From contig CM059432.1 in assembly GCA_030390025.1 (NCBI GenBank), positions 84,756,001 to 84,820,000 on the forward strand: a DNA stretch of 64,000 nt, in the 5' to 3' direction. The notes beneath the pieces were generated by a model. The model had not been told where the DNA came from. It did no database searches and saw nothing but the letters and a program-made list of their open reading frames with translations. Shown in pieces: positions 11,184 through 56,583 of this stretch; position 1 is the first letter of the stretch, and every line of letters starts with the position of its first letter. The DNA comes from Squalus acanthias. Its lineage: Eukaryota. The position numbers and the translations under genes are program-made.

Positions 11184-11355
11184 TTTGTATCTGACGGGGA
11201 GCAGGGACGGGAGGTTACAGAAGAGCTCGAGAGTGAAGAGTCAGAGGGGGACAGAGACATGGAAGTGCGGGGTGGGATGGCATCATGGGAAAGGTTAGTG
11301 AGGGGCAGAAGGAGGGAGAAGGGGCAGCTCCTCAGCCCAAACCTGATGGAAGGAA

Positions 11356-13022
11356 TGTAAGGGATTCTGACCCTGCGTGTCTCGCAGCCTGTGAGATTCA
11401 CGCGGCTCTGTGCAGCCTGTATGTCAGTGCGGGTCTAGGCCTCGTTGCCTGTTCTGGTCTCCAGCCAGTCTGGGAACACTAGACACACCTGTGAGTGGTT
11501 CGAATCACTCTCCCTTACGGTTCTAGACACTGGACTTAGATGCGAGAGCAGTAATGGAGATGAAACTCATGTAGACTCGGTTTGAATGGTACGAAATGGA
11601 AAATCTTTATTGCATGATACTTAAGATTATGAAATACATGTCATAAGCACAGATTAATGACAGTACAATCTTACAAACAGTTATATAGTCGATCTTAGGG
11701 AAACGAGGAACGAACGGCACAAAGTAAATAGGGGCACACATTACAAATATCCTTAATCCTTAAACCCTCCCCTATCAATATCTATCCTAAACTAGATTCG
11801 TAGGATCTCGAGACTCATGCTCACCACTCGTGATAACTCGGAGAAATTCCGAATAGCTGATCGGATGTTTTTCACCGCAGCACCCACGTGTCGGTCAGGA
11901 GATCTCCTGGTCCCACTTGTTTACTTGCTTCTGCTGCTCCGGCTAGCAGGCTGGAACGTCTGCTGTGATGAAGACCTGTGTTGGTTGGTTTAACAGGTAC
12001 TTTTCGAGCACAGTTGTCGATATCATCGATACGATATGTTTCTTTGCAAGTTCGAAGAAGTCTTCCTGGCAAGGAAAACTTGGCTAATCGACCTACAGGC
12101 GCGGTCGGGATTTACTGACCGTGGCGATGGATATGGTCTTCCTCTCTTCTCATCTCATCTCATCTCATCTCATCTCATCTCATCTCGGGCCTTTGGTTCC
12201 GCTGCCAGTTACCAACATAGGTCTTCGTTACGCGACACGAGGTAGATCCGAACGGATCAGAAAGTTCAACAGTCTTTTCAGAAGAGGCAACAGGCAAGCA
12301 GAAGCGAGCCCAACTACGAGTACACAGGAGCAGCCACGAGGTTACGAAAACAAGAGCACAGGAGCAGCCACGATGATAAGAGCAGCAAGAGAAAGATGGA
12401 CGGTTTGGAGCCTGCAATTATAGTGCAAAATCTTCCGTTTCCCGCCCAACTATAATGTCCATTCTTTTGTTTAGGGTCTGGCGCTCAAATGTCTTGTATG
12501 GGTGATCTCCGTTCTTAATGGGTTTCGGGGCTACTCGTAAATGTCTGAGTACCTGTTAATATTTCTCCCATTGTTAAATCGGTCGGTGTTCTCCCTGGAG
12601 GGGTTTGGGGCTTCCAAGTGTCCTGTATAACTACCTGCTAACGGCTCTCTCATCGTAGAGTCGTTGGGATTTTACATATTAATGTCTTTTGGATGGGCCC
12701 TTGATTACTCGGTACAATGGCTTTCCTTTGTACCTGGGAGACCGATTTCAGTATCTATGTGTATACTGCAAACCCATAATGTCTCGTGTATTATCTTCAC
12801 TGTGCTGAATCTTAATCGATCTTGCACAAATGTTTATTGGAACGCCATCTTGTCTGCCTGTTGAAAAGTCTAGAATGTTCTGTCACGAGGTGCGGCGGCC
12901 ATTTTACAGGCTGCTTGTGTCCACTTTAAACCTGCCAGCATTCTGCTGAAATAAAAGCTGTTTGAACGAAACTCTGTGTTTTCTCCTTATTAATAAAATC
13001 GCGATATATTGCGAATTCTACA
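11356..13022 (-). repeat. 3' LTR (1667 bp)
   Basis: Direct repeat of 22477-24138; termini TGTA...TACA; contains (TCTCA)7. Confidence 0.97.
11606..11611 (-). terminator. Candidate polyadenylation signal AATAAA in the 3' LTR
   Basis: AATAAA on the minus strand about 250 nt before the LTR end; a second AATAAA at 12833-12838 makes the choice tentative. Confidence 0.5.
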
Positions 13023-13034
13023 GTCCCTCCTGTT
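13023..13034 (-). other. Polypurine tract
   Basis: AACAGGAGGGAC immediately precedes the TGTAG start of the 3' LTR. Confidence 0.75.
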
Positions 13035-13472
13035 GATGCGAATAACTCCGCTTATCGTATCAAAAATCATAGTGGTGAGCAATATTATCTCGATTTCTCT
13101 CCGAATCCAGTAAATTAATCCCATAATTTTAACCTAGCTAGGGTCTCTGTGTCGTCCTCATTTCCCAAGAAAATTACATTTTATATCACCGTAGGCATTA
13201 TTTGCCCTTAAACTTACACCACTTGTTTTCCTTCCCGGCGTAACCAGGCCGATGCCTCTCGTATCACCTGTATATTCATCTTTTATTCAGGGAAAGGAAA
13301 AACAAAACCCAAAACCAAACAATCATTTTTAACTGTAACACCATCACCAAAATAATCAACACCAACTCTTAAAACATGTCGAGTTCCCAACGTATTTACA
13401 ATCTCTGAAAATCATCATCGAGTACAAACTTCCGCGGCGCACGTGGCGAGCGGGAGTGACGCCATTTTCCGA

Positions 13473-15824
13473 TCACACGGTGCTTTCATCGTGCACGCGC
13501 ACGTAACGTTCTCGCCACTCTCCCGTGTTTTCATGCTTGGTGAGGCGCTTGTCTCTTTTACAATGTACGACCAATAGGTACACTACAATGAAAACTTGGC
13601 ATACGACTAAAATGTGGGAGGCTATTCTGATCCATGAAGGCACTTCAATATTGGTGAACAGATTCCACCACGGTGGAACTACTATATCCAAAATGTCTGT
13701 TCCTATTTCGACAGTTTTCTGTTCTAATGTGTAAAAGTGTTTCTGTGACACCGCGACGGCTTTTAAAAGCTTGGTGAGGTGTTCAGGGAGAGGGGGAATG
13801 AGGTATCCAAAATGCGCGACGAATCGCTGCAAGTCGGTGAAATTCTCTTTTACTGTGAGATGAACAGTGGATGGTTCAGGGATTGGGATAATTCGCTGTT
13901 GTGCTACTTGAACTTCCGCCCTGGGTTTAAAACAGAAACTGCTGTCACTCACCGGACACCGGCTACGGTTTCCATGCTGGTAGTGTTGCGCTGCAGTGGT
14001 AACACAATATGTTCCACCCCCGATGTATGCTACCTGCGGAGGCACATGATCTTGTGCCATTGCCTCCATGGTGCAATTCATGGACTTGGCGCCAGTCGTT
14101 CTGAACCCGCACTGTGGTGTTAAAAAGGCATTCAAGTGCTGGGGGCACAGTATTATGTGTGCTCCCCTGCCACGACAACCAGAGAGATCTGTACCTGTCA
14201 TCGTTTGCTCCCAGCGGATGACGTAAGGTGGAACCGCTGCATAACGAATGTGGGCTCCCCCCTGAATGACACCAATGTTCTCTACCCGATATACCGGGGC
14301 GGGCTTTGCTGTGTCGCCCAAAACCGGCATGCGTAATACTATTCCCATAATAGTATGGTTTGAACGTCCGCAGTCCACGGGGACTGGGTAAGCTTCTGAA
14401 GCTAGCCTGAGCTGGCACGGACTTAATGCGTTCTGAAAAGGGTGGAGCGCCCGCAGGTGTTTGTTACTTATCCAGGACGGAACCAAACCTTGTTTTAAAT
14501 CCTCCAAATTACTGCGGCCCTCGCCCAGTAACCACGCCCCGTAAAGCACGCACACCTCGTTCTGCGCAGCTTGATCGGATGCATTCCGATCTTCCCTAAT
14601 CAGGGCATTTACCGTCTTTGCATGTTTCTCCAACTCTGCTATAATTTCCTTTAAATGGAGAGTCATGGCTTGGTCCTCGTGTAGACCCGACCCTACCACT
14701 TTATTCTCATCTGTTAGAATGTCCTTTAATTGTGTCTTTAAACCATTAATCTGGGTCTGCAGCTCCACACTGTCTAGAGCGTTGACCACAGATGTACCCG
14801 TGTTAAAAGCAGTGAACGCATCGTTCACCAAACCCCTTCTTTGCCTCCCTGCTTGATTCAAAACTTCCTGTGGTGCGGTGTACAAACTTGTCTTATCAAT
14901 TTCCGCGAAATCGAATTCGTAAAATTGTCTGAACATCTTGGTCAACAGGACCTGATACAACTGTTCCGTCTTTTTGGGGCACCACTCTGGTAACCGCACC
15001 TCGGTGAGATTTAAAATCACCGAGGCCACCGCGTAATGTACCCCCTGAAATAGTATCTGGTCTGTGGGGACCAGTACCAAACCATTCCCGGGTCCCTTAC
15101 TAGTTTTAGGGCACCCTTCTTCCTCAGCTAGAACCACCGGAATCGTGGGCGGGGCTTTGCGTGGGCGCGTAATGAGCTCAGTGGCATTTACTGGGATCGG
15201 GGAGAATGGGGCTCCGCACCCCCTGGTGCTCGCATCCCACCTCATCCCCTGTCCGTTATCCTGCCATTGATTAATGAAAAATATGGAGATGCCTTTGGGG
15301 CAAACGTACTTTGACCCCCACATACATACATAAATTCCCTCATCCGGTTCCCACCATTTGTCCCAACAGACTTTCACTTGTCCGTCTGTCCCCGTAATTG
15401 TCCGATGGGTATTATTACCCAGTCGTTCCCACTCGACCGAAGAGTTCCTCATAGTGTTGCTCAGCTTTCGCAGCCACCACCATCGGCTCAATGGGACCTT
15501 CCCACTACAAGTCAAACAAATCCGTTTGCCGACGGTGACGCTGATCCTGGGTGCGATGATCCTTACTTTGGGGCACAGTAAAGAAGTCTCTTTGTAGGCA
15601 AACCCCGATGTGCTGGAATACTCCGTTGAGTTCGTTCCCAGCCATCCTGGCCACCTTCCCTTGTGGAAATAGGTGCTGGTCTCCTCTGCCTCCCGTCTTC
15701 CGGTCCCATCCACCGCGATGGGGGCCGTGTCCCCGGAACATCCAAACACCACGACATCCTTGGTGCGGCCTCGATAGGCCAATCCACATCCGATTGCCAC
15801 GAGCAATACTAGAATTCGTTCCAT
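13473..15824 (-). CDS. env: Env glycoprotein, 783 aa: signal peptide, Ig-like domain, F-type class I fusion protein with furin site, TM anchor
   Basis: ATG at 15824 opens a hydrophobic signal MERILVLLVAIGCGLA. Several NxS/T sites; RQRR/GLV cleavage at 14835-14846 followed by a heptad region and a Cys-rich block; TM ILVVCQVFIVVYLLVV; short tail. Confidence 0.92.
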   Translation of the reverse strand: MERILVLLVAIGCGLAYRGRTKDVVVFGCSGDTAPIAVDGTGRREAEETSTYFHKGRWPGWLGTNSTEYSSTSGFAYKETSLLCPKVRIIAPRISVTVGKRICLTCSGKVPLSRWWWLRKLSNTMRNSSVEWERLGNNTHRTITGTDGQVKVCWDKWWEPDEGIYVCMWGSKYVCPKGISIFFINQWQDNGQGMRWDASTRGCGAPFSPIPVNATELITRPRKAPPTIPVVLAEEEGCPKTSKGPGNGLVLVPTDQILFQGVHYAVASVILNLTEVRLPEWCPKKTEQLYQVLLTKMFRQFYEFDFAEIDKTSLYTAPQEVLNQAGRQRRGLVNDAFTAFNTGTSVVNALDSVELQTQINGLKTQLKDILTDENKVVGSGLHEDQAMTLHLKEIIAELEKHAKTVNALIREDRNASDQAAQNEVCVLYGAWLLGEGRSNLEDLKQGLVPSWISNKHLRALHPFQNALSPCQLRLASEAYPVPVDCGRSNHTIMGIVLRMPVLGDTAKPAPVYRVENIGVIQGGAHIRYAAVPPYVIRWEQTMTGTDLSGCRGRGAHIILCPQHLNAFLTPQCGFRTTGAKSMNCTMEAMAQDHVPPQVAYIGGGTYCVTTAAQHYQHGNRSRCPVSDSSFCFKPRAEVQVAQQRIIPIPEPSTVHLTVKENFTDLQRFVAHFGYLIPPLPEHLTKLLKAVAVSQKHFYTLEQKTVEIGTDILDIVVPPWWNLFTNIEVPSWIRIASHILVVCQVFIVVYLLVVHCKRDKRLTKHENTGEWRERYVRVHDESTV

Positions 15825-15837
15825 CCTTCCTTGGTTC

Positions 15838-15862
15838 CTGTGATCAGATAGAATGAGGTAGC
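15838..15862 (-). promoter_or_regulatory. Candidate env splice acceptor
   Basis: CTACCTCATTCTATCTGATCACAG/G lies 13 nt upstream of the env ATG. Confidence 0.55.
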
Positions 15863-16136
15863 CAGCCTCGCAAGAGTCTCTGGCTTTTGTGAAGGGTGAG
15901 CGGGTCCCCTGACCTCGCCTCACGTAAACTTCCACGTTTGCTGTATAAACTTTTCACTAAACCTATCTTTAAAACTCCCATCATTTTATCGTTTTCTGTT
16001 TAAAACACTACAAACTTAACCTTATTAAAACTATAAACTTAACCTTGAACTATTAACTTAAAACTTAACCTTGAACTATAAACTTAAAACTTAGAACTAT
16101 AACTATACAGTGCCGCCCGTTCTCAGGGCGGCCCCT

Positions 16137-19100
16137 TTAAATTCTGAGAAGGCTGCTGCGAGCTCTTCCCGACGGTGGGAGGGCACTGACCCTTCCCTCT
16201 GATCTGCCGCAGCCTGTTGCTGCGCTGACCCTTCCCTCTGATCTGCCGCAGCCTGTTACTGCTGCGATGTGGCCGGTCTGTATCTGGGTTATCTTAACCT
16301 TAAATTTTCGCCTTGGGGCAGTCTGGGGACATGACCACATCCTCCTGGGCTGGGGTTCTCTACCTGACCTACGGGGAGTTGCTATGGGCGGGGGTTCCGT
16401 GACGGACGGACCGGGTTCCGAGACTTCCATCGGGATGACCTGGGGTTCCATCACAGTCGCTGGCTCCGCCTCCGCTGACTCCGCCTCCCTAACCTCGGGG
16501 CTGGCAGTTCGTGGCTCCGCCCTGCTTGGCCCAGCAGGCGGCCCTTCACTCGTGATCTCTGCCTCCCCTGAGGACTGGACGTTCAAAGCGGGCGGCCACA
16601 TCTCTGGGAGCCACACCGGTACTCTCTGTGCTCCCATAGCGGCTGGCCCTGCCTCCTCTAGCTCCTCCCTCCTGTCTTCGGGACCTGCAGCTTGGGTGTC
16701 CACCCTGTGTTGATCTCTACCTACAGCCCCCATTCCCTCCAGACCGTTCCTCAGAAACCACCCGTCATCATCACTATTCTCATCTGCACTATCCTCATCT
16801 GACCAGGGTGCCCTGAATTCTTCCTCATCTAACCCCCAATTCCAGAAAAACGCTGCATGATCGTCCGGGATGTCCCTTCCCCTGATGCAAGCTGCTATGC
16901 CTGCCTGTGTGCCTTGTGGTCCTACCTGGGGCTGTGCTTTCCCGTTGGCGGGATTTACCCCTGTAGTTTTCCCTTGCGCACCTGGCTGGTACAGTTTGCA
17001 TTGGTTTATGTGGAACCACTTAGTGCGCCGTGGTACTTTTACGGCGTAAACCATGGGACTCGCCTTGTCTACAATGTTGTAGGGTCCCATATACAGTGGT
17101 TCCAGACTCCCTACTCTGGCATAGTTTCTGACCATGACCTGGTCTCCCACTTCCCACTCCCGCGTTTTGCGGGGTTCCAGCAACAAGCGATTGCCCTGAT
17201 GCTGCCTTCCCATGTTCCCAGCCGCCTGCTCATAAACTTGCTTCAGGCGCTCCAAGAGAGTCTGGGCGAACTTGTCCCTGCTTATCTCTTGGAGCTGACC
17301 CTCAGTGAGCACCGGGGCTAGCACATGGGTGGGGGTTCGCATGAGCCTGCCGGTCATTACCTCGTGCGGGGAGTACCCCGTACTTTTTGACTGACTGGCC
17401 CGGACCCCCATGAGGACTAAAGGCAGAACTTCCGCCCATTTTTGGGGCGAGTTCCTAGTCTCTTTCCTCAATTTCTCCTTCAGGGTCCGGTTCATACGTT
17501 CAACAATCCCGGATGACTGGGGATTGTGTGCTACGTGCCACTTCCCTTCAATGCCCAAAAGCATGAGGGTGGTCTGCATCACCTGGCCGGTGAAATGACT
17601 CCCTTGGTCTGACTCCACAAAACGGGGGAGTCCCCACCGCGAGAACACTTCCCGGACCAAGATTTTTGCTGTACCTAGTGCCGTAGCTGTTCGACAAGGG
17701 AAGGCTTCCACCCACTTGGAAAACACATCCACCAGGACGAGGCAGTACTTATAACCTCCCTGGGTGGTGGGCAGGGGTCCTATATAGTCGATCTGTATCG
17801 ACTGCCATGGTCCCTCTACCCTTCTTACGTGTCCCATGGGCACCTTCCTTTTCTGGGGGTCTGGGTTGTTTGCAGCGCACACAAGACAGTTTGCACAGAA
17901 CTCGCGGACTTGTTCCCTGAGCCCTGGCCACCATCCCGCTTGCTCTACCCGTTGCCAGGTAACCTCGGGCCCGGGGTGCCCTGCCCCTGGTCCCTCGTGA
18001 GCCAACTGGAGGAATTCCCTCCTGTGCTGCTGTGGCACAACCCACTGCTCCTCGCGGAACAGCATGCCTTCCTTAACTGAGAGGGTTGCCGTACTGTACG
18101 GACCTTCTACCTGTCTCCCCTCAGCAATCGTTTTTAGGACTGCTTTTAGGGCGGGATCCTGGGCTTGGACGGTCTTAAGGTCTAGGGGCAATGCTACCCT
18201 GGTGTTCCCGGGATTCCCGTCCCCGCCTCGGACCGCTGCTATGGGTCCGGCCCTATAGGGGTTCCAGAAAGTGCCGTCGCGGGCACCTTCCCTGGCTAGC
18301 GCATCCGCCTGCCGGTTGCCTTCCCCACGGGGCTCTGTGGAGGAGTGAGCTTTCACCTTATGGATGAAAATCTCTCCTTCCTCCCCTACTGCTGCTGCTA
18401 AGATCTTTTCCAGCAAGGGCTTCACCGTTAAAGGTCGCCCGTCCGCGGAGGTGTATCCGCGGCGGGACCAAATGGCCAGGTATTCCGTACACGAATTGCA
18501 GGTGAACATACTGTCCGAGCAAATCGTGTATGGGGTTGGGAAAATGTCTGGGTGGGTCACAACGTACACCACGGCAGACAGCTCAGCTTGCTGCGCGCTC
18601 ATGGTGCTAGGGAGCTTGATCGCCAGGGCAAGGTCTGCCGCAGGGTCATAAACTCCACACCCTGTGAGTCGCTCGCCAGCAGATACTGTGCTAGACCCAT
18701 CAACATAAATCTCGCGCCCATTGGGATGTATCCCGGCCCGTAAACCTATGTTGACGTCCCACACCCCTTCCACCGAACACCGGTGGGCTGTACCGGGGTA
18801 TACCAAATTGGCCGCAAGCCTGGGCTCGCAAAGACCTTTTACTCTAAGATCCAACTGGGAGAGAAGAAGGGTCCAACGCGCAATGCGCGCGCTGCTTACG
18901 GTCCCGTCTTTAATCCTCCCATCCAGAAGCATCTTAGTTGGTGTGTGATGTGTGAGGAGAGTGATGGGAGAGAGCCCTGTGAAGATCGCTGATCTTTTCA
19001 CAGCCCAATGCGTGGCTAAAAGGTGCCTTTCGCAATTGGAGAAACTTCTCTCCACATCCGTTAACACCCTGGATGAATAGACAACCGGCCTCAGCTTGCC

Positions 19101-20660
19101 GTGACGCTCTTGGAGCAGCACGGCGCTTAAGCTGTCTCCGCTGGCAGCTACCTCCAGGAAAAACTCCCTCCCCCCATCTATGGCCCCTAAGGCTGGCGCG
19201 GTCTGCAGATCCCTTTTTAACTTCTCGAAGGCTGCTTGGCAGCCCTCGTCCCAAAACCACTCCACCCCCTTATGGAGGAGTCGGAGGAGCGGCGCTGCTG
19301 TGGCCGCATAATCTTCGATAAAATCCCTGCAGTAACCGGTCAGTCCCAAGAAGGACCTCACACCCCTTACGTTGTTGGGAATCGGTAATTCTTGCACCGA
19401 CTCCCTCCTTGCTTTGTCTATGGCTCTTTCCCCAGCGCGTATGGTCAGTCCCAGGAATTTTACTTCCCGCTGACCGATACGTGCTTTCTTAGGATTTATT
19501 TTAAAACCCTTTCTCGCTAGCAGCTCCAATAACTCGTCCAGTAGTGGTCCATGCTCCTCCCTTGAGTCCGTAAATAGGAGCAAATCATCCACATACTGCA
19601 CTATCTGATTGGGCTGACTAAACTCCTTTAAACTTCCTGCCATACACTGATGAAAAATACTGGGGCTATTGTGGAAACCCTGTGGCAGACAGTTCCACGT
19701 GTACTGTTGCCCTTTGAAAGTAAAGGCAAACTTGTACTGGTCCTCTCGCCGCAGCGGGATGGACCAAAAACCGTTCGAGATATCCAGCACCGTGAACGTG
19801 GTCGCGGACGCTGGGATGCTCCCTATTAGGTCAGCAACTGCTGCTACTGTGGGCGCGCAGGCGGGAATGTTACTGTTAAGGACTCTGTAGTCCACCGTGG
19901 CTCTCCACGAATTATCCGGCTTCCTAACCGGCCATAATGGGGAGTTCACGTGTGTGGCTATCGGCCTCAACACGCCCTGCTGCACCAAGGAGGACATTGC
20001 TGTCTCCATATCGGGTTCTGCTTCTTTGGGGAAGTTATACTGCTTTTGGGGTCGGGTCATGGGGTCCCCATCTATGCTGACCTCAAACCCGACCACTCTC
20101 CCACAATCGTGCTTGTGGGTTGCAAACGCGTGCATATTATCTGACACGTACGTTTGCATGTCCGTTGGGACATCTGCGACCATAAGCCTGAGGTCGTAGC
20201 CTCCGGATGGCTGTACGGTACACAGGACCCCTGTTTCTTCCTCCCCCGGAATCACTATTACCTCGCCTTTTTCACCTTTAGCCCCCCAGAGACAGTGATT
20301 TCTGAGGTCCACGAGGATCCCGTGTCCCGCTAGGAGATCGGACCCGAGAATACCTCTTCCACCCCCCTTTTGCCATGCCATCAGTATACACTTCCACTTA
20401 AGGCGAAGTGTTCCTAAACGAATGGATAGCGGAAGGGAAAACGTGCCAGCCTGTTCTTTTCCTGTGAACCCTGCTAACGTGAATGGGACCTTGGTAGATA
20501 GCGGCGAGTCAAAAGGGTTATCAGTATGGATTATGGTGCAAGAAGCTCCCGTGTCCAACAAATAACTACCCTTCTGTTTCTCTACCTCCATCTCCACCAC
20601 AGGTCGCCTCCACGCATCATAGCTAAGCGGACACAGGTAGACGGGCTGCGCCGGTTCTAG
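16137..20660 (-). CDS. pol: Pol polyprotein (PR, RT, degenerate RNase H tether, RNase H, integrase, C-terminal extension), expressed by readthrough from gag
   Basis: LLDTGAS protease; LDISNGF, LPQGF and YVDD RT motifs; YVDGS..AEL..SDS..GNRQAD RNase H; HHCC, D-D-E (QIDY, SDQG, VERMN) and GPY integrase motifs. The frame is open from the codon right after the gag stop. Confidence 0.96.
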   Translation of the reverse strand, partial: LEPAQPVYLCPLSYDAWRRPVVEMEVEKQKGSYLLDTGASCTIIHTDNPFDSPLSTKVPFTLAGFTGKEQAGTFSLPLSIRLGTLRLKWKCILMAWQKGGGRGILGSDLLAGHGILVDLRNHCLWGAKGEKGEVIVIPGEEETGVLCTVQPSGGYDLRLMVADVPTDMQTYVSDNMHAFATHKHDCGRVVGFEVSIDGDPMTRPQKQYNFPKEAEPDMETAMSSLVQQGVLRPIATHVNSPLWPVRKPDNSWRATVDYRVLNSNIPACAPTVAAVADLIGSIPASATTFTVLDISNGFWSIPLRREDQYKFAFTFKGQQYTWNCLPQGFHNSPSIFHQCMAGSLKEFSQPNQIVQYVDDLLLFTDSREEHGPLLDELLELLARKGFKINPKKARIGQREVKFLGLTIRAGERAIDKARRESVQELPIPNNVRGVRSFLGLTGYCRDFIEDYAATAAPLLRLLHKGVEWFWDEGCQAAFEKLKRDLQTAPALGAIDGGREFFLEVAASGDSLSAVLLQERHGKLRPVVYSSRVLTDVERSFSNCERHLLATHWAVKRSAIFTGLSPITLLTHHTPTKMLLDGRIKDGTVSSARIARWTLLLSQLDLRVKGLCEPRLAANLVYPGTAHRCSVEGVWDVNIGLRAGIHPNGREIYVDGSSTVSAGERLTGCGVYDPAADLALAIKLPSTMSAQQAELSAVVYVVTHPDIFPTPYTICSDSMFTCNSCTEYLAIWSRRGYTSADGRPLTVKPLLEKILAAAVGEEGEIFIHKVKAHSSTEPRGEGNRQADALAREGARDGTFWNPYRAGPIAAVRGGDGNPGNTRVALPLDLKTVQAQDPALKAVLKTIAEGRQVEGPYSTATLSVKEGMLFREEQWVVPQQHRREFLQLAHEGPGAGHPGPEVTWQRVEQAGWWPGLREQVREFCANCLVCAANNPDPQKRKVPMGHVRRVEGPWQSIQIDYIGPLPTTQGGYKYCLVLVDVFSKWVEAFPCRTATALGTAKILVREVFSRWGLPRFVESDQGSHFTGQVMQTTLMLLGIEGKWHVAHNPQSSGIVERMNRTLKEKLRKETRNSPQKWAEVLPLVLMGVRASQSKSTGYSPHEVMTGRLMRTPTHVLAPVLTEGQLQEISRDKFAQTLLERLKQVYEQAAGNMGRQHQGNRLLLEPRKTREWEVGDQVMVRNYARVGSLEPLYMGPYNIVDKASPMVYAVKVPRRTKWFHINQCKLYQPGAQGKTTGVNPANGKAQPQVGPQGTQAGIAACIRGRDIPDDHAAFFWNWGLDEEEFRAPWSDEDSADENSDDDGWFLRNGLEGMGAVGRDQHRVDTQAAGPEDRREELEEAGPAAMGAQRVPVWLPEMWPPALNVQSSGEAEITSEGPPAGPSRAEPRTASPEVREAESAEAEPATVMEPQVIPMEVSEPGPSVTEPPPIATPRRSGREPQPRRMWSCPQTAPRRKFKVKITQIQTGHIAAVTGCGRSEGRVSAATGCGRSEGRVSALPPSGRARSSLLRI

Positions 20661-22472
20661 TCATGGGGTACTATTAGACGGTCCTGCGGCACCTACGGGG
20701 CCGGTTGCGACCGCCACCTGTCCACGCGCATTCAAGACCAGCTTGCGCATGGCTCCTAACACTGCTTCGAGGTCGTCCGGAGGGGTGGGTGCACTAGCTT
20801 CCCTAGCCGGGACAGGCGCCTGGGCTCGGACCGCGGGATTTTTATCCTTGGAATCCTTCCAAGGGTTCCTGCAATGCTTGCGCCAGTGCCCTGTCTTCCC
20901 ACACCCGTAACAAGCATTACTTGCCTGTGGGGCGCGATTACCCTCCTGATGCCACTCTCTTTGATACGGGGCTGCGGGTCGTACCTCATGTACTCTTCCC
21001 TTAAGGGGACGTGTTGCCATACCCCTTATATTGCGATAACCTAACGTGAGTCGATTCAAGACCGACTCTTCCGTAATGTTGGGGTCATTGGGATCAAACC
21101 ATGCTTTTGCCTGCTCTCTGACGGCTGGTAAACTGTTGGCTATTATGCACCTAAGCCAATGAGTTAAAGCGGTGCCTTCCACATCTTCGCGCTCGGGCGC
21201 ACCTAGGCAGCTGCGCTCATATACTGGCCACAGCCTGTCGGCAAAAACCTTCGGGGGTTCTCCCTCCATCTGCACTGTCTGTCCCACTCTAGCAAACGGA
21301 CCTTCGTCGTTCGCCCCCAACACTTCTAGGACCTCATTCTTTAATTCCTCATAACTCTTGGTTCCCCTCTTGCTCTCGCCTGAGAGACACTGAAGGACCG
21401 AGCTGTCTAATGAGAACAGCAGCATTTTTGCTGTCTCCCCATCATCGCAGCCGTTAATGGCTGCGGCTTGCTCAACTTCTCTGAAATGTACGGAAGGGTC
21501 GTCTGCCTCGGTCAGCTTCCGTACGTGATTTATCATAGCTCTCAGCTGATGTGAACTGTGAGGCAACACCAACTGTCCGAGGAGATCCCCCGGTTCTTCC
21601 CCACCGTTTCTGCTTGGGCCCCTTTTAATACCCGTTACTGGATACAACGATCCCTTTCCTACTTCTTTTTCAATGGGCTCTTTTGTTTCTTCCATTGCTT
21701 CCTCCCTAACCCAGGTTTCTGAATAGCTGGGTGGCGCGGAGGGCGCAGTGGCTACTACTTCTTCTGCTTTACTTGGTGGGGATTTTCTAAATCTCTCATT
21801 TACTAGCGGCTGGTGTGCCGACGGATTGATAAGGCACACCATGCCGTTCGCATTGTTCACGGCCTTTTTGAGGTGCTCTATCTCCCTTTGGCAGGCGCTA
21901 TGATCGGCTCCCTGAAACTTATCCTCAAGGGCCAACTTATATGCCGCCCTAACCCCCGTTAAGCTCTCTTCTTGAGTTCTTATCTGGGCAGCTTGGCGGT
22001 TACATCTTTCCTTTAACCTGCTTTCATTCAACTTCGCCTCAGTGACCTGGCACTCGAGATAATCTATCCTTGTTTTAAGGTGACTGGAGACTTCCTGGCT
22101 TTCTTGGTTCAACTCATTTAAATTCTTAATGAGCACCTCTCCTCCAGAAACCTTCTCATCCATTTCTCCCTCTAAATGACTGATTCGAGCTACTAGCGCT
22201 GTAATGGTCTGGTTTGAAATCTGAACCTGCCTTTTGTAACACATAAGCCAGACTGCTTTCTCAAGTGTCTTTCTATGTTCTTTACTATCTGTCCACCTTT
22301 CAGCTGCCTCTAGTGGGCTTTTATCCGCTAACAATTCACTTATCCATTTCTTAGTTAGATTAACCTTTCCAAACACATAATCCGCTATCTTTTCCTGCAT
22401 AACATTTCGTACAGTCATTCCAAAATCTAACACACTACCCTCTCGCTGCCAGTGTCCTGCCGCGGTCGCCAT
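20661..22472 (-). CDS. gag: Gag, 603 aa: N-terminal coiled coil, late domain, capsid-like region, one CCHC knuckle
   Basis: Strong Kozak AAAATGG; heptad-rich aa about 80-205; PSAPPSY; MHR-like QMEGEPPKVFADRL; CYGCGKTGHWRKHC. Confidence 0.95.
   Translation of the reverse strand: MATAAGHWQREGSVLDFGMTVRNVMQEKIADYVFGKVNLTKKWISELLADKSPLEAAERWTDSKEHRKTLEKAVWLMCYKRQVQISNQTITALVARISHLEGEMDEKVSGGEVLIKNLNELNQESQEVSSHLKTRIDYLECQVTEAKLNESRLKERCNRQAAQIRTQEESLTGVRAAYKLALEDKFQGADHSACQREIEHLKKAVNNANGMVCLINPSAHQPLVNERFRKSPPSKAEEVVATAPSAPPSYSETWVREEAMEETKEPIEKEVGKGSLYPVTGIKRGPSRNGGEEPGDLLGQLVLPHSSHQLRAMINHVRKLTEADDPSVHFREVEQAAAINGCDDGETAKMLLFSLDSSVLQCLSGESKRGTKSYEELKNEVLEVLGANDEGPFARVGQTVQMEGEPPKVFADRLWPVYERSCLGAPEREDVEGTALTHWLRCIIANSLPAVREQAKAWFDPNDPNITEESVLNRLTLGYRNIRGMATRPLKGRVHEVRPAAPYQREWHQEGNRAPQASNACYGCGKTGHWRKHCRNPWKDSKDKNPAVRAQAPVPAREASAPTPPDDLEAVLGAMRKLVLNARGQVAVATGPVGAAGPSNSTP
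22454..22471 (-). other. Primer binding site, tRNA-Arg(TCG)
   Basis: TGGCGACCGCGGCAGGAC is the complement of the 3' 18 nt of vertebrate tRNA-Arg(TCG) (GTCCTGCCGCGGTCG-CCA, recalled sequence); 5 nt from the LTR end. Confidence 0.88.
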
Positions 22473-22476
22473 TTTC

Positions 22477-24138
22477 TGTAAGGGATTCTGACCCTGCGTG
22501 TCTCGCAGCCTGTGAGATTCACGCGGCTCTGTGCAGCCTGTATGTCAGTGCGGGTCTAGGCCTCGTTGCCTGTTCTGGTCTCCAGCCAGTCTGGGAACAC
22601 TAGACACACCTGTGAGTGGTTCGAATCACTCTCCCTTACGGTTCTAGACACTGGACTTAGATGCGAGAGCAGTAATGGAGATGAAACTCATGTAGACTCG
22701 GTTTGAATGGTACGAAATGGAAAATCTTTATTGCATGATACTTAAGATTATGAAATACATGTCATAAGCACAGATTAATGACAGTACAATCTTACAAACA
22801 GTTATATAGTCGATCTTAGGGAAACGAGGAACGAACGGCACAAAGTAAATAGGGGCACACATTACAAATATCCTTAATCCTTAAACCCTCCCCTATCAAT
22901 ATCTATCCTAAACTAGATTCGTAGGATCTCGAGACTCATGCTCACCACTCGTGATAACTCGGAGAAATTCCGAATAGCTGATCGGATGTTTTTCACCGCA
23001 GCACCCACGTGTCGGTCAGGAGATCTCCTGGTCCCACTTGTTTACTTGCTTCTGCTGCTCCGGCTAGCAGGCTGGAACGTCTGCTGTGATGAAGACCTGT
23101 GTTGGTTGGTTTAACAGGTACTTTTCGAGCACAGTTGTCGATATCATCGATACGATATGTTTCTTTGCAAGTTCGAAGAAGTCTTCCTGGCAAGGAAAAC
23201 TTGGCTAATCGACCTACAGGCGCGGTCGGGATTTACTGACCGTGGCGATGGATATGGTCTTCCTCTCTTCTCATCTCATCTCATCTCATCTCATCTCATC
23301 TCGGGCCTTTGGTTCCGCTGCCAGTTACCAACATAGGTCTTCGTTACGCGACACGAGGTAGATCCGAACGGATCAGAAAGTTCAACAGTCTTTTCAGAAG
23401 AGGCAACAGGCAAGCAGAAGCGAGCCCAACTACGAGTACACAGGAGCAGCCACGAGGTTACGAAAACAAGAGCACAGGAGCAGCCACGATGATAAGAGCA
23501 GCAAGAGAAAGATGGACGGTTTGGAGCCTGCAATTATAGTGCAAAATCTTCCGTTTCCCGCCCAACTATAATGTCCATTCTTTTGTTTAGGGTCTGGCGC
23601 TCAAATGTCTTGTATGGGTGATCTCCGTTCTTAATGGGTTTCGGGGCTACTCGTAAATGTCTGAGTACCTGTTAATATTTCTCCCATTGTTAAATCGGTC
23701 GGTGTTCTCCCTGGAGGGGTTTGGGGCTTCCAAGTGTCCTGTATAACTACCTGCTAACGGCTCTCTCATCGTAGAGTCGTTGGGATTTTACATATTAATG
23801 TCTTTTGGATGGGCCCTTGATTACTCGGTACAATGGCTTTCCTTTGTACCTGGGAGACCGATTTCAGTATCTATGTGTATACTGCAAACCCATAATGTCT
23901 CGTGTATTATCTTCACTGTGCTGAATCTTAATCGATCTTGCACAAATGTTTATTGGAACGCCATCTTGTCTGCCTGTTGAAAAGTCTAGAATGTTCTGTC
24001 ACGAGGTGCGGCGGCCATTTTACAGGCTGCTTGTGTCCACTTTAAACCTGCCAGCATTCTGCTGAAATAAAAGCTGTTTGAACGAAACTCTGTGTTTTCT
24101 CCTTATTAATAAAATCGCGATATATTGCGAATTCTACA
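22477..24138 (-). repeat. 5' LTR (1662 bp)
   Basis: Direct repeat of 11356-13022; adjacent to the PBS; contains (TCTCA)6. Confidence 0.97.
23533..23565 (-). promoter_or_regulatory. Candidate LTR core promoter (GC box GGGCGGGAA then TATAAT)
   Basis: Minus strand reads GGGCGGGAAACGGAAGATTTTGCACTATAATT; motif evidence only. Confidence 0.35.
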
Positions 24139-24491
24139 GGAAGAGGCTGAAACTGCAGGGAAGGTTCAAACAAGAGGTGAAAAAGAGCTGGAGGCTGCAG
24201 GAGAAAGCAACAGCTGCCCGAAAAGTTGGGAAGGAGCATGAGAGGAGGGAAGGGGGGATGGGGGGATTATCAGGCACACTTCCCTTATTTGGAGCCATGA
24301 TTACTGATCAATTTTTAAAGTACATTAGATTAGTATATGTTATGGGAGACAAATTAAACTTCAGGTTTTGATGCTAATATGTGGTGGAGGAATGGCTGTG
24401 CAGAGCGGCGGAATGGATTTGTATGATACAGTGGAATGGTCACGATGTTGTAAATGTTTTTAATGTTCAATAAATAATATATATTTAAAAA

Positions 24492-24942: not shown

Positions 24943-27294
24943 TACCGTGTTTTCACTATCTCTCTGACCCCAAACGATCAGTCCTCAGCAAAGGTCCCAG
25001 CTTCATCCCTTACGCCCCCACCTCAATGAATTTTGAGCGCAAGATGATGCTGAGCTCTTCTTCCGTCGCCTTTGCCTCCATGCCCACTTCTTTGGCCAGG
25101 AGTCTTCCCCTCGCACAGCGGACATTTTCTCCCATCTTCAGAATTCTTGTTCCACCTGGATCCCTCCCTCTGGCCTCTTACCCTCTCTTGATCTTTTCAT
25201 TGGGAACTTTCAGCATGACTTCGGCCATCTCAATTTCTCTACGCCCCTCACTCACTCTAATGTACCTCCCTCTGAACTTCCAGCACTCCGTTCTCTCAGG
25301 TCCAACCCTGACATTGTCATTAAACCTACTGACAAGGGCTGTGGTTTGGTGAACAGACCTCCACTTTACGAAGGCTGAACGCCAACTCTCCAACATCTCC
25401 TCCAACATCCCCCTTGACCACGATCCCACCACCGAGCATCAAGCCATCATTTTCCAGACCGTCACAGACCTCATCTCCTCTGTAGATCATTCCCCCATAG
25501 CCTCCAACCTCATAGTCCCCCAAACCTGCACAGCCCGCTTCTACCTTCTTCCCAAGATCCACAAACAGGACTGCCCTAGTGGATCCATCGTTTCAGCCTG
25601 ATATTACTCCACAGAATAGGATAGTTTTTACTATCTCGACTCTATTTTTTCTCCCCTTGTCCAGTTGCTTCCGACCTATATCCGCGACTCTTCCGACGCC
25701 CTCTGCCACTTGAACAGTTTCCAGTTTTCTGGCCTTAACCATCTCCTTTTCACCATAGATTTCCAGTCCTTCTACACCTCCAGCCCCCACCAGGACGGCC
25801 TGTGGACGCTCCGCTTCTTCTTGAACAGAGGCCTAACTAGTCCCCATCCACCACCACCCTCCTCTGCCTGGCTGAACTTGTTCTTACATTGAACAACTTC
25901 TCCCTTGACTCCTCTCACTTTCTCCAAATACAAGGTGACCCTATGGGAATCCATATGGATCCTAACTATGCCAGCCTTTTCGTGGGATACGTGGAACATT
26001 CTTTGTTGCAGTCCTACTCAGGTCTCCACAATCACTTCTTTGTCTGGTACATTGACGACTGTGTCGGTGCTGCTACCTGCTCTCGCCCCGAACTGAAAAA
26101 TGTCATCAACTTTGATTCTAATTTCCACCCTCCTTTGCCTTCACATGGTCCCTCTCCGACTCTTCCCTTCCTTTCCTCGACTTCTCTATCTCCATTTCTG
26201 GGAATAGCCTGTCAACCAATAACTACTATAAGCCACAGCTACCATGATTACACTTCCTCCCACCCCGCTTCCTGTAAGGACTCTATTCCATTCTCCCAGC
26301 TTCTCCATCTCTGTCGCATCTGTTCTGACGAAGCCACCTTCCACACCAGTACTTCCAATATGTTTTTCTTTTTCCTCAACTGAGGATTCCCCTCCACTGT
26401 TATTGACAGGGCCCTCGACCATGTCCGTCCCATTTCCCGCACTTCTGCCCTCCCACCTCCCACTCCCTCCTAGAACCATGATAGGGTCCCCCTTGTCCTC
26501 ACCTTCCACCTCACCAACCTCCAGATTCAACGGATCATCCTCCGCCATTTCTGCGTCCTCCAGCATGAAGCCACCATCAAACACATCTACTCCTCCCTTC
26601 ACCTTTCAGCATTCTGAAGGGACCATTCCCTCTGCGACACCCTGGTCCACTCTTCCATCACCCTCAACCCCCATTCCCCTTACCATGGCACCTTCCCTTT
26701 AACCTCCTCCCTTCCCACTATCCAGGGCCCCACCCACTCCTGCCAGGTGAAACAGCGATTTACTTGTACTTCCTTCAATTTAGTATACTGTATTTGCTGC
26801 TCACGATGCGGTCTCCTCTATACTGGGGAGACCAAGCGCAGATTGGGCAATTGCTTTGCTAAACACCTCCGTTCAATCCGCAAGCGTGACAATGAGCTTC
26901 CGGTCGCTTGCAATTTTAATTCTCCATCCCGCTCCCACTCTGATCTCTCTGTCCTCCGTCTCCTACACTGTTCCAATGAAGCTCAACGGAAGCTCAAGGA
27001 ACAGTACTTCGTCTTTCGATTAGGCACTTTACAACCTTCCAGACTCGGCATTGATTTCAATAATTTCAGATCATGATCACTGCTCCTATTTTTTTGGACA
27101 GCAGGTGCTGGTAATGGTTCTGCTGTTGCCATTTATACCTCCTCTAGACCTATCTTTTGTTTTTTTACCACTCCCTTTTGCCTTGCACCATCATCCCTTT
27201 TGTCATTTAATCTCTCCTGCTTTCTACCCTATTACAGACCTTCCCTTTTATTCTTTCCTCCCTTCCTCTCCCATTTCCCTGCTTAAAACCTATT

Positions 27295-31038: not shown

Positions 31039-34000
31039 TGTAATATATGTGGGTAGAACAAATGAAGGACAGAGACACGGTGAGTTGCTAGTCAAGGTGC
31101 TTGTTTATTAGGCCAGAGCGAGCCGAGCATGCTCAGACTAAACCATGTGACAAACCATGTGATAATACATTACACTGCTTTCCTCTTAAAAAAAAGTACA
31201 TATTTCCCTCAAATACAACAAAACTATGGTCCCACCTTTCCCAGCATTAAATGTACCACATAACAAAAACGCCTGGCGTTTTTTCGTTTAAATCAACAAC
31301 AAATGCTACAAATGAACTACAAATCCAGTTTAATAGCAGGTTTACGGAGCCTTCCTGATCTCCTTACAAAAGGTTTTGGTGTTGAACCAATTTTCGGGCT
31401 GTTTTGTTCTGGTTCCGAACTCAAAAATGATCCTGTTTCTATCTCAGATTTGTTTGAACCTGGTACTTCAGTTTCTGAAGTCTGAGCAGAGTCAAACTCA
31501 TGTATGTGTTCATCATCAAGTGGTTCAAGATCATGTCTTGGTTCATCTCTAGCAGAGATCCTTTGATCTACATGAACACTTCAATCTCCTCTTCATCAAG
31601 AGTTCTGCTGGGGTATATCCAGTTGTAGTGTGCGGAGTAGTTCTGTACTTCAGCAAGTAATCTACCATGTTTCTTCATGCTGAGTCCCAAACAACCCTGC
31701 AACACTTGCTTTTTGAGAGCTTCTTTCACTATTCTGACTGACCTTTTGGCTGCTCCGTTTGAAGCTGGATGATATGGTGGAACAAACGCGTGTTTGATAC
31801 CATTCCATTTCATGAACTCTTGAAATCGAGCAGAACGGAACTGAGGGCCATTGTCAGAAACAAGCTCTTCAGGTAAGCCATGACAGGCAAAGATAGACCT
31901 CAACTCATCTATGGTACGTTCAGTTGTAGTATTTGAACCCGTGTTTCACTTCAATCCACTTTGAGTGACTATCTACAAGTACCAGAAAATAATCATTTGC
32001 TTTCTCACAGAAGTCTACATTTACTCTCTGAAAAGGTCTACTTGGCCATGACTAGGGTTGTAGTGGAGTTTTGAGTGGTTTGTTTCTGCAATTTTGGCAA
32101 ACGCTGTATTTGCTGACAAGTGATTCAAGATCACTGTCCAATCCAGGCCAGTAAACAATTGATTTCATACTGACGATCCCTGGATGTTCAGTATGAAGTT
32201 CGGCCAGAATTCTATCTCTCAAAGAAGTAGGTACCGCCACTTTGTTTCCCCACTTGATACAACCTTGCTCACAAGACAATTCAGTATGACAGTTATGGAA
32301 TGGTTTCAACCCTGTGTCCAGACACTGATCAGTCCATCCATTCAAGGTGTTTTCATACACTCTTTTCAGTACTGAGTCCTTTTGAGTCTCATCTGCAATT
32401 TCAGCTGCATTCACGGGAAAGTCTTTGTCAACTGCACCTAGCGTGAAACTAACACCTTTAATCCCAACACGAGTCCTCATGTGGCAACCAGGACAAGGCA
32501 TCTGTGGTTGCGTTTTGCTTTGAAGTGCGATATTCAATCGTGTAGTCATATTGTGGCAACAACACTGCCCAACGTTGCATTCCTGATGTGGCCATTGCAG
32601 GGATGGCAGATTTGGGCTCGAATATTGCTAGGAGCATTTTGTGATCGGTTATCAAGGTAAACTTTCTGCCAATCAGGAACTGTTGGAATTTCTTGATTCC
32701 AAACACTATGGCGAGTGCTTCCTTTTCAATTTGCATGCAGTTTCTTTCGTTCTTTGTGAGGGTTTGCGATGCAAACACAATTGGTTTCTCTTGGCCATCA
32801 TCCATTACGTGGCTTATGACAGCTCCCACACCATAGTTAGAAGCATCACACGCTAACTTAAGCTCACGCTCTGTGTCGTAGTGCACCAGTAGAGCATCGT
32901 TAGAGAGACTTCTCTTACAAGCGTCGTAAGCTTCCTGTTGCGTTTTTGTCCACTTTCACTGGACATCCTTCTTGAGGAGCTCGTGCAGTGGAGCTAACAT
33001 GGTCGCTAACGCAGGTAAGAAACGTGTGTAGTACTGGACCATTCCAAGGAAAGATCTAAACTCAGACACGTTCTGTGGCTTTGGAGCATTGATGACAGCA
33101 TCAACCTTTTCCTTAATTGGTTGCAAGCCATTTGCATTAACTTTCAGACCAAAGTACACAACCTCAGGCTGCACAAAAGCACATTTGCTCCTTTTCAATT
33201 TGACATTGTGGGAATTCAACCTCTGAAGCACTAAATCTAACACCTCTAGATTTTCTTCCTCGCTGCTTGTTGCGATCAGCACATCGTCTTGATTGCATAA
33301 GCAATTTAGAATTCCTTGCAAAATCTTATCCATTGTAGCCTGGAAGATTTTGGGGGAGGACTTTATACCATACGGCAGCTTGGTGTCTGAGTACAGTCCC
33401 TTGTGTGTGTTGATGGCGAGATACTATTGACTCTTTTTGTCAACATTCAGTTGAGCAACAGGTCAAGTTTAGAGAAAACCTTTGACCCAGAGAGTGCTGC
33501 ATACAAACCTTGCAATATAGGTAACGGGTACTGCTCATTGTCAATTGCTTGGTTGATAGTAACTTTGTAGTCACCGCACAAGCGTACAGATTTGTCTGCT
33601 TTGGGCACTACCACAATCAGGGTAGCCCATTGACTTTTGTCAGTTTTTATTCGCACTCAGTTATGTCTCAGTTTCTCAAGCTCTTCCTCCACCTGATTTT
33701 TCAACGCATAGGGGACCGGCCTTGCCTTACAATAGACAGGCTTCCCGTTGGACTTGATGCGGATATGCGCGTCATACCTAGTGATGCCCTCATAACTGTC
33801 TGTGAACATGCTTTTATACTTGTTCAGCATTGTGTCGAGTCACTTCTTTGAAGCATCTACACTGAAGACGTTTTCCCAGTCTAGTTTTAACTTTCTCAAC
33901 CAGTCTTTGCCCATGAGGGTTGGCCTGTTGTTGTAGCTCACTACAATAATAGGCAGCTTTACTGACTGGCCATTGTGCTGAGCTGTACATTCCATTTGTC

Positions 34001-35700
34001 CACATGTCTCTAGGCGGGTGACTGTCTGTGTGGAGTTTGCACATTCTCCCCGTGTCTGCGTGGGTTTCCTCCGGGTGCTCCGGTTTCCTCCCACAGTCCA
34101 AAGATGTGCGGGTTAGGTTGATTTGGCTATAATAAATTGACCCTTAGTGTTAGGGGGATTAAATACGTGGGGTTACGGGGATAGGGTGGGATATGTGTCG
34201 GTGCAGGCTCGATGGGCCGAAATGGCCTCTATCTGCACTGTGGGGATTCTGTGATTCTGTGATTCTGTGATTTCTCCGGAGTAGGTTTTTAACTCTACGG
34301 TACTCTTTGTAAGTGGTATTTGATTAAACTTACTCTCATATGTGTCCTTAGTCATGATAGAGCAGTCCGCCGCTGTGTCAATACACATATCAATATATTG
34401 GTCATTGATCAAAAGTTTTGTGCGGAAGTCTTTCTCACGACTGCTAGCATTGCCGCTAGTGGAATAGATACTGTAGATGCCTAGTCTTCAACATCAGGTG
34501 TGTTCATTTCAATATTGTGAATTCCTCCCTTTTGTTGTCGTTGCTTTGCGTTGCCACTAGAATGGTTCTTACTTCTTGCTTTCGATCTAGCTCTGCAAGC
34601 TGTTGAAATATGGCCTTGCTTCTGGCGGTGAAAACACTTCGCATTTCTGTATTGGCAGGACTGTGGTGAGTGATTTCCATTGAAGCAATAACAATTCACT
34701 GAACTGCTCTCACCAACATGCTTTTGACTTGGTCTCACAACTTTAGGTTTGGCGGTGGCTTTGTGACTGTAGACCCCAGCTGCACTAGTCACTTGAGTTG
34801 GACGGAGCTCCCTAGCATTCTTAGACGCTATCTCCATAGATAGAGCAATTTTGCATGCTATGTCAAACGTTAGGTTCGGACTGTTCAGTAATTTGGACTG
34901 TGTGCACTCATCCACCAGTCCACACACAAACATATCTCGCAACGCCCGATCTAAAAATGTGCCGAAGTTACAATGCAAAGACAGGTTCTTAAGAGCTGAA
35001 ATGTACTCACTGATGGTTTCACTTTCTTTTTAGTTTCTGGTATCAACGCTGTAGCTCTCTGCTATTTCTAATGGCTTTGGGTTGAAATGGTCCTCGAGTT
35101 TCTCGACAATGTCTTCAAACGATGCATCCTTCGCTTTCCCTGGCTTGAGTAGGTTTGTCAACGTTCCGTAGACATCTGGCCCAATCTCCGTTATAAAAAT
35201 TGCATTTTTACATTCACGAATTACTTTATTTTGAGTTTGAACAGTCTCATCTGCACCTTCGGTCTCAATAATGTTATAGGCCTTAAAAAACATCTCCATC
35301 CACTCAATGTAAGAACTGAATCGTTCGCGAGCTCGGTCATACATGCCGAGGCTTCCGATGAATCCCATAGACGCAGCCATGTTTGTCCCAATCCCGTTGA
35401 ACAGTGACTCAGCACGCTACCTGTGTACCTGTGAGAATCAACGCCACTGTTGCTGTGTTTACATACACACAAAGACGAAGCACAGATAATTCTGCATCAG
35501 CGTTAACAGTAAAACATCGCAAAAAAATCAGCTTAGATGCCACAAAATCAACTTAAACTTTTCCACTCGAAGGCTGAACACTGTGTCCTTCCATGATCCC
35601 TAAAAATGGCTTTGGGATCCCATTCTCGTACCCAAAAATGTAATATATGTGGGTAGGACAAATGAAGGACATGTGACAAACCATATGATAATACATCACA
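31039..35700 (-). mobile_element. Decayed Ty3/Gypsy LTR retrotransposon with short LTRs (31039-31174; 35639-35700 internally deleted)
   Basis: 5-bp TSD GTAAT; gag fragments with CCHC remnants, IDTAA protease, RLCGDYK/QDD RT, CDAS..EKEALA..TDH RNase H, SDNGPQF..YHPASNG integrase; many stops and frameshifts. Confidence 0.92.
34011..34270 (+). mobile_element. V-SINE (HE1-like), 5'-truncated, nested in the Gypsy
   Basis: V domain GTGTGGAGTTTGCACATTCTCCCCGTGTCTGCGTGGGTTTCCTCCGGGTGCTCCGGTTTCCTCCCAC and CR1-type (GATTCTGT)n tail. Confidence 0.88.
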
Positions 35701-56373: not shown

Positions 56374-56583
56374 CTGAAGAATAAACACAAATACAACCAT
56401 AAAAACCTGCACCACGTCTATATGAAAATTATCATAACATTTATCTTTGTGTATTCTCTTTGTAAATCACCACGGTACTCCCGAACCATTGTTTGTTGTA
56501 GTCTAAAACAACTTTCTGCTACCTAGAGCTACCGGGTCTCAATTCTCCCTGGCTTCCAGCACTGAAAAAAAAAACATTTACAG

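Follow-up and report, generated by a model that had tools for sequence, protein, structure and literature searches.

An intact provirus of Squalus acanthias with a polymerase of the SnRV-related grade and a predicted F-type envelope protein

The subject of this study is a 64,000-nt stretch of the Squalus acanthias genome (contig CM059432.1, positions 84,756,001 to 84,820,000; hereinafter the window). The window contains, on its minus strand from 24138 to 11356, a complete provirus with two long terminal repeats (LTRs) and open gag, pol and env genes. It is a real, intact provirus; its Pol is best read as a variant of the known clade III retroviruses, and the combination with its Env seems to be the new part. 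We consider it probable that it is a young endogenous retrovirus (ERV) of the grade related to snakehead retrovirus (SnRV; clade III, ‘Huo’), which carries an F-type (subclass Ib) Env with an added N-terminal, probably immunoglobulin (Ig)-like head and has spread mainly by enveloped particles. An earlier note on this DNA had described a complete lokiretrovirus-like provirus. Its account of a complete element stands: the LTR pair, target-site duplication (TSD), primer-binding site (PBS), polypurine tract, unbroken gag, pol and env, and every catalytic motif sought are present. Its assignment to the lokiretroviruses (Loki) is contradicted by the motifs, identities, trees and topology test of the reverse transcriptase (RT). 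Coordinates below are positions in the window, and all genes, LTRs and signals of the provirus lie on the minus strand.

Placement of the polymerase

The pol gene (16137–20660; 1507 aa) is in frame with gag, lacks its own start codon and contains no internal stop. Pfam identifies a protease (weak match), an RT, a Ty3-type RNase H-like tether, a second RNase H and an integrase. Specifically, the protease (20328–20612) has a DTG motif, the RT core (19440–19928) has D...YVDD and is SnRV/clade III-like by motif and trees, and the integrase (16989–18038) has HHCC, D-D35-E and a GPY/SH3-like end. The tether (18855–19253) is a degenerate Ty3-type RNase H by Pfam and alignment, and its first and third acidic residues seem to be replaced in a by-eye reading against Gypsy rows. 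The second RNase H (18282–18713; PF00075, E = 1.8e-19) has the catalytic D-E-D-H-D. The degenerate and active RNase H pair reported in the earlier note is therefore present, but a tether plus a second RNase H is common to all retroviruses and is not diagnostic of Loki. Pol ends in an acidic, proline-rich tail of ~278 aa with a 39-nt tandem repeat (16140–16973), whose frame stays open and whose ratio of non-synonymous to synonymous substitution (dN/dS) is ~1 between subfamilies. Pfam gave no dUTPase match in Pol.

Two RT trees were computed from a set of 225 RTs. The quick tree (mixture model) held 68 rows, namely 43 from dual-RNase H and related elements and 25 random others, and the careful tree (LG+G4) held 36 rows picked by hand from the 68. 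In the careful tree, the query falls into a crown clade (support 100/98) that also contains SnRV and the class I-like Pols, with frog and coelacanth Pols next to the query. The Loki-type RT P0016 lies outside this clade; the quick tree gives the same split of query and P0016 (SH-aLRT 98). Both the class I-like clade (100/99) and the gypsy clade (100/100) of the careful tree leave the query out, so that the RT does not nest inside an ordinary Gypsy clade. The approximately unbiased (AU) test rejects a clade of query and Loki (p = 0.0017). P0016 was called Loki by motif identity with the published alignment, and row P0201 matches the printed SnRV RT.

The RT motifs and identities agree with this placement. 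The query has LPQGFHNSP and QYVDD, as SnRV does; LPQG is found at its site in the query, SnRV and murine leukaemia virus (MLV), whereas Loki RTs have PFG(Y) there in the alignment of Wang & Han (PMC7947760). The RT is 51–53% identical to frog and coelacanth Pols, 44% to SnRV, the closest named exogenous RT in the comparison set, and 35% to P0016. Among PDB structures, MLV-type RTs score 200 bits, foamy virus RTs 180–195 bits and the RT of human immunodeficiency virus far lower. The nearest Pols carry the NCBI name NYNRIN-like. A related, open NYNRIN-like Pol-like protein of 1109 aa from ostrich (P0014) lacks YVDD and is possibly a domesticated gene.

Fold of the envelope protein

The env gene (13473–15824) encodes 783 aa with no internal stop. 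From its open reading frame (ORF), motifs and predicted model, Env consists of a signal peptide, an N-terminal head, an F2-like part, a furin-type cleavage site RQRR (14835–14846), an F1-like part and a transmembrane segment, with 10 N-glycosylation sequons. In its signal peptide, RXKR-type site, coiled coil and transmembrane segment it agrees with Loki Env. None of the marks of a gamma-type Env that were sought (CX6CC, LQN or a motif like the immunosuppressive domain, ISD) is present in it. Sequence searches of Env against Pfam and PDB returned no fusion-protein family, PF00523 included, and the fold search alone gave matches.

The Env model was built on 33 relative sequences, with a mean predicted local distance difference test score (pLDDT) of 60 and values of about 80–95 over much of residues 241–650. 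Foldseek places the F protein of human parainfluenza virus 3 first (E = 3.9e-11), and the matches listed are F proteins only. Structural alignment (VIA) gives Z scores of 10.4 to the F protein of Newcastle disease virus and 8.8 and 8.4 to foamy virus Env, and thus a core common to paramyxovirus and pneumovirus F, foamy Env and the present protein; the root-mean-square deviations are large, which is to be expected when pre-fusion structures are compared with post-fusion ones. The predicted model shows an F fold for Env residues about 240–715. This bears out the resemblance to Mononegavirales fusion proteins claimed in the earlier note, but not its use as a Loki marker, because foamy Env, published as an F-related subclass Ib fusogen (PMC11468914), shares the fold, and because Env models of walleye epsilonretroviruses match as well, so that F-type Env is not confined to Loki. 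Specifically, the F-type model is matched, with low TM-scores, by two Env predictions in BFVD, that of walleye epidermal hyperplasia virus 1 (E = 3.5e-12) and that of walleye dermal sarcoma virus (E = 4.1e-10). A review calls the walleye retrovirus Env ‘distinct’ and non-gamma, and epsilonretroviral Env may also be F-type.

The N-terminal head of Env is probably Ig-like, as indicated by several weak but concordant matches. A putative Ig-like domain with the pattern C...W...DxGxYxC covers Env residues 86–175 (15300–15569). The Ig_3 profile matches 3 of 33 family members (best E = 0.0085; the query itself, 0.73), the V-set profile matches one family member, and the full Env model gives beta-sandwich and Ig matches at Z scores of 5–6; no single Ig match to the head is significant by itself. 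In the Env of Loki-Xla, F2 follows right after the signal peptide, whereas the present Env has about 220 extra residues there. In foamy virus Env the binding domain is inserted between the subunits, whereas the extra module here is N-terminal. The F fold has been described as a scaffold that acquires receptor-binding modules (PMC11468914).

Env matches a single chordate cluster of the Atlas (0.84), and phmmer against 1.84 billion representatives found 51 relatives, ten of which were looked up; the eight that are named come from sharks, a skate and two frogs. A cluster from the frog Mantella aurantiaca (P0170) has 16 members, mostly full-length Env relatives of 677 aa, which suggests a parallel recent env burst in amphibians. 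Other entries (P0005, P0006, P0133 and P0161) carry Env pieces fused to host domains (Niban-like, zinc finger and cadherin in sawshark gene models, F-box in another), which would be accounted for by exonised env or else by artefacts of annotation. None of the viral contigs encodes a relative.

Proviral anatomy, copies and selection

Comparison of the LTR pair defines a 5’ LTR of 1662 nt (22477–24138) and a 3’ LTR of 1667 nt (11356–13022), both TGT...ACA, and the element is bounded by the repeat GGAA at 24139–24142 on the 5’ side and 11352–11355 on the 3’ side. The LTRs have no mismatch, the sole difference being one 5-nt microsatellite unit. From a TATA-like box at 22808 and an AATAAA at 22732 we infer the U3/R/U5 division of the 5’ LTR. 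With the shark rate that Han 2015 assumes (2.2e-10), zero substitutions in about 1,660 LTR positions give an age of at most ~4 million years; a mammalian rate lowers this bound to 0.4 million years. Of the earlier note's description ‘recently active’, recent insertion is supported by the identical LTRs, and current activity is not implied by the age bound; a recent insertion need not mean activity today. Likewise, ‘replication-competent’ is suggested by the intact ORFs.

The PBS (22454–22471) is complementary at 18/18 positions to tRNA-Arg(UCG), starts 5 nt past the LTR end and overlaps the gag ATG. Its complement equals the 3’ end of tRNA-Arg(TCG) genes of the same genome at 3/3 loci checked, and a tRNA gene search of the 64-kb window found none. 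The 3’ end of tRNA-Arg(TCG) has 422 exact genomic matches (G000:C26, loci L026 and L027), so that the primer tRNA gene is strongly amplified; the matches listed lie mostly in 1.62-kb tandem units, with tRNA-Ser(GCT) adjoining in both loci checked. The short polypurine tract AACAGGAGGGAC (13023–13034) abuts the 3’ LTR. The gap between LTR and PBS (22472–22476) is 5 nt here and 3–5 nt in relatives (L019:2088, L021:3860 and L023:3580). The usual retroviral gap is 2 nt, shorter than here, and in view of the abutting polypurine tract at the other LTR, end processing by integrase may be asymmetric.

The gag gene (20661–22472; 603 aa) starts within the PBS, contains no internal stop and ends in TGA. 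Gag has PSAP at residue 244, a single CCHC box at residues 521–534 and a retrotransposon Gag-like capsid region; for the capsid, the first Atlas match (0.92) is a lead only, and a Pfam search of Gag gave no match. The gag/pol junction TGA-CTAG (20657–20663) is a candidate stop-codon readthrough signal, and the continuous frame of gag and pol across it points to readthrough. UGA CUAG has been published as a consensus for readthrough (bioRxiv 2021.04.18.440353), and TGA-CT is kept at 16/18 other loci fetched, one divergent locus having TGA-AGA and one lacking the region. The RNA 3’ of the gag stop folds no better than shuffles (z = 0.1), so the idea of a pseudoknot-driven readthrough was dropped. 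No further long ORF, such as the separate smc gene found only in some Loki members, is present in the element.

The family is present at high copy number. Counts of exact 18-mers over the 3.71-Gb genome, which are floors for one sequence variant each, gave 2,835 matches for the PBS, 619 for the full gag–pol junction and 995 for a pol-deleted junction, with 0 for reversed controls, and these supply the genome-wide copy count proposed in the earlier note. At least 40 full-length LTR matches were scored among 3,482 candidates, and a comparison of internal regions scored at least 15 full ones at 98–100% identity (window copy included) and one partial. Every one of the 57 scored env matches, the best 57 of 12,920 candidates, is open, with an identity of 99% or more. 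This genome also contains older subfamilies and sister families of the same layout. A second env family (e.g. G000:C10:93148972) is 78–88% identical to a sawshark env piece, compared with about 68% for the family of the window. Unusual arrangements comprise tandem proviruses with a shared LTR, a 2.9-kb tandem repeat of the gag–pol junction and an inverted LTR pair (L003; G000:C1252, C3102, C2:19916831-19922700 and C4:163580393-163584123).

The pol-deleted, or short, class was characterized at eight loci, six fetched by a 7.7-kb LTR spacing and two by env matches. It retains gag, the Pol tail and env, and most of protease, RT, RNase H and integrase is replaced by ~245 nt of unrelated, repeat-bearing coding sequence, with both breakpoints shared by 7/8 loci. 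The env gene is open in 5/8 copies and gag in 5/7. Five of six complete short copies have their own 4-bp TSD and 3–9 LTR substitutions, and the sixth is a tandem copy. The 245-nt segment (L001:3691-3935) is in frame past the TGA, encodes a repeated coiled-coil-like peptide and continues into the Pol tail in 5/7 copies; nothing in the element or window matches it at the DNA level, and its likeness to Gag is weak (E = 0.22).

Against the window copy, env dN/dS is 0.03–0.13 for the eight short-class copies, and 0.05–0.13 for the five that were not picked through env, with 14–28 synonymous and 3–7 non-synonymous differences per pair. Across subfamilies it is 0.09 and 0.08. For gag, dN/dS against the window copy is 0.06–0.32, and for the pol core between subfamilies it is 0.14–0.15. 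Judged by these ratios, gag, env and the core of pol are under purifying selection.

The sequence evidence on the host agrees with a shark or ray, as the earlier note had supposed. Six collinear exons of the genome match a Niban-like protein of sawshark at 64–87% (a comparison without outgroup), and the named close relatives of the Env are from a skate and sharks. In the flanks of the provirus, an RT-bearing element has two 81%-identical copies (25456–27089 and 56566–58261), the second with a long open frame (56566–58245). The other flank repeats (32055–35029, 48109–52310 and 60269–63998) we take, from their motifs, to be a decayed minus-strand Ty3/Gypsy-like remnant and ORFs like those of long interspersed nuclear elements. 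Among public data, 14 runs that belong to seven studies and carry six organism codes contain 55–67% of the env-region words; no RNA run is among those listed. In the three runs examined, which are contigs of uncertain type, the pieces are mostly 97–99.8% identical, and pieces at 98–99.8% come from at least three organism codes. One organism code may be the host species itself, and these matches do not distinguish close kinship from cross-species spread.

Competing explanations, known relatives and significance

In the reading that we favour, the 5’ LTR would drive a genomic RNA whose leader is R-U5 only, so that Gag would be translated from the AUG inside the PBS. Gag-Pol would arise by leaky UGA-CUAG readthrough set by sequence context, with no pseudoknot. 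Env would be made from spliced RNA and cut by furin at RQRR; its F1-like part would fuse membranes, and its head would most likely bind the receptor. The family would have multiplied chiefly via enveloped particles that enter germ cells. One pol-deleted derivative, still with Gag and Env, would have borrowed Pol from full copies (trans-mobilisation), and would now outnumber them. The infectious route is argued mainly from the loss of pol in copies whose env was retained by selection, and the pol-deleted class, as read from its sequences, suggests spread by infection.

Other placements of the element were considered. That it is the first lokiretrovirus in cartilaginous fishes is very improbable. 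The dual RNase H and the F-type Env, the F2 start of which resembles by eye the start of Loki-Xla Env, agree with such a placement, as do the integrase and tether, which are 42% and 41% identical to P0016 against 35% and 27% to SnRV. Against it stand the RT evidence given above and the absence of the long protease–RT spacer of Loki Pols. Moreover, in a stricter first look the best 28 scored matches of P0016 in this genome are only 34–36% identical, and the 10 fetched are the present family or its relatives. The integrase tree, which held no CGIN1 row, puts the Loki integrase among the query's relatives with weak support (91/70) and leaves the query's own position without resolution; of the RT and integrase phylogenies proposed in the earlier note, the RT tree thus speaks against Loki and the integrase tree is uninformative for the query. 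Wang & Han screened six chondrichthyan genomes, none of which is marked Loki-positive (PMC7947760), in line with the earlier note's statement that Loki were reported from lampreys, bony fishes, amphibians and reptiles rather than from cartilaginous fishes. Alternatively, a separate early-branching lineage of sharks, skates, frogs and coelacanth, between Loki and the named retrovirus clades, could have retained a Loki-like integrase together with an F-type Env of ancestral origin. We regard this as unlikely, if worth serious attention: query, frog and coelacanth Pols do form a grade without resolution below SnRV plus class I in the careful tree, the Loki integrase sits among these relatives, and sharks, a skate and frogs have related Env proteins. 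However, Han 2015 places an ERV lineage of elephant shark with the same RT motifs, CmiERV lineage I, beside SnRV (PMC4422223), the integrase tree does not place the query, the RT tree held no foamy and ERV-L rows, and that frog Env and frog Pol belong to one element is assumed. The earlier note's second option, a new sister lineage, may still apply, given an RT tree of this composition.

With regard to the mode of spread, the family could instead have multiplied in germ cells like a retrotransposon, with env kept for other reasons, namely a recent infectious parent or host use. The very high copy number, the dominance of the pol-deleted class, the tandem copies with a shared LTR and the broken env genes of short copies would fit such a history, which we hold to be rather unlikely, because the deleted class dropped pol yet retained env, env changes are mostly synonymous and selection on env is seen across subfamilies. 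Collapsed reads or gene conversion can yield near-identical LTRs, but the probability that the provirus is an assembly artefact or contaminant is negligible: it has its own TSD, lies on a chromosome-scale contig with host repeats around it, has near-identical pieces in other public runs, and 5/6 other copies checked have different TSDs, the sixth being tandem.

Some results count against the favoured reading as well. An exclusive clade of query and SnRV is weakly rejected (p = 0.036), and SnRV clusters with class I-like rows in the careful tree; for these reasons ‘SnRV-related’ denotes a grade, not a tight clade. The RT trees held a single Loki-type RT and no foamy, ERV-L, CmiERV-I or class II rows, with labels assigned by motif identity. 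For Env, the segment past RQRR is only mildly hydrophobic (mean 0.51), and one simple pattern found no splice donor. For the head, a profile search against PDB was empty, and the Foldseek matches listed for its model (pLDDT 42), although all Ig-type chains, are of low confidence (best E = 0.035). Finally, env is broken in 3/8 short-class copies, and all dN/dS pairs share the window copy as reference, so that they are not independent.

Among known elements, CmiERV-I (PMC4422223) has a cartilaginous-fish host, the same RT motif set, TGT...ACA LTRs and, in a by-eye reading of the printed DNA, an in-frame TGA-C junction. However, it has a gamma-type Env (ISD and CX6CC by eye), another PBS with a long leader, and is decayed and dated to about 75 million years, whereas the present provirus is intact, its F-type Env bears a head, and its Arg PBS overlaps the gag ATG. 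SnRV shares the RT motifs but is no exclusive sister, and its integrase is distant, as given above. Lokiretroviruses (PMC7947760) are alike in the order LTR-gag-pol-env, the tether plus RNase H, the F-related Env with an RXXR site and a related integrase, and differ in an RT clade that excludes the query, the long protease–RT spacer and the separate smc ORF. Ty3/Gypsy elements, including errantiviruses with an F-type env, have a Metaviridae RT and a single RNase H, and the query fits neither. Foamy viruses differ in a Pol with its own start and a Gag without a Cys-His box (PMC8278194), whereas here pol has no separate start and Gag has a CCHC box.

XtERV-S of Xenopus (PMC8278194) is likewise an intact class III ERV of an anamniote with identical LTRs, TGT...ACA ends, a TGA readthrough junction, deleted companion copies and an Env class differing from the Pol class. 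It is unlike the present element in being ERV-L-like (YIDD, dUTPase, no CCHC) and in its Ser PBS, 5-bp TSD and gamma-type Env. As closest relative it was rejected, the query having YVDD, CCHC and no dUTPase match in Pfam.

The position of the query RT in the crown but outside class I, the TGT...ACA ends, and the single frame that gag and pol share across a stop fit clade III/Huo. Chondrichthyans are described as rich in clade III RTs (PMC11089739), and clade Huo has been reported for every major lineage of vertebrates (PMC8922424). Since SnRV-related and clade III Pols are known in chondrichthyans, the Pol lineage is a known one and the envelope is the surprise. The literature that our searches covered contains no SnRV-related ERV with an F-type or Ig-headed Env and no chondrichthyan Loki.

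What was found is an ERV burst, both large and young, among vertebrates whose ERVs had been considered tens of millions of years old. In it, a non-autonomous partner dropped Pol and kept Env, the reverse of the usual env loss. For structural work, the element provides a natural F fusogen that is intact and has a probable receptor-binding head of the Ig type. With an intact retrovirus of the crown, neither Loki nor foamy, that has an F-type Env and a close RT relative with a gamma-type Env, phylogeny can test in which direction Env was swapped; Wang & Han left four scenarios open for the origin of retroviral Env (PMC7947760). A broader interpretation, which we offer tentatively as possible but doubtful, is that of a shark retrovirus lineage still spreading by infection, perhaps between species, with an ancestral F-type Env common to Loki and foamy viruses and a captured Ig receptor-binding head. 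If this is true, the gamma-type Env would be a later replacement in the group, and the last common ancestor of Retroviridae would more likely have had an Env of the F type.

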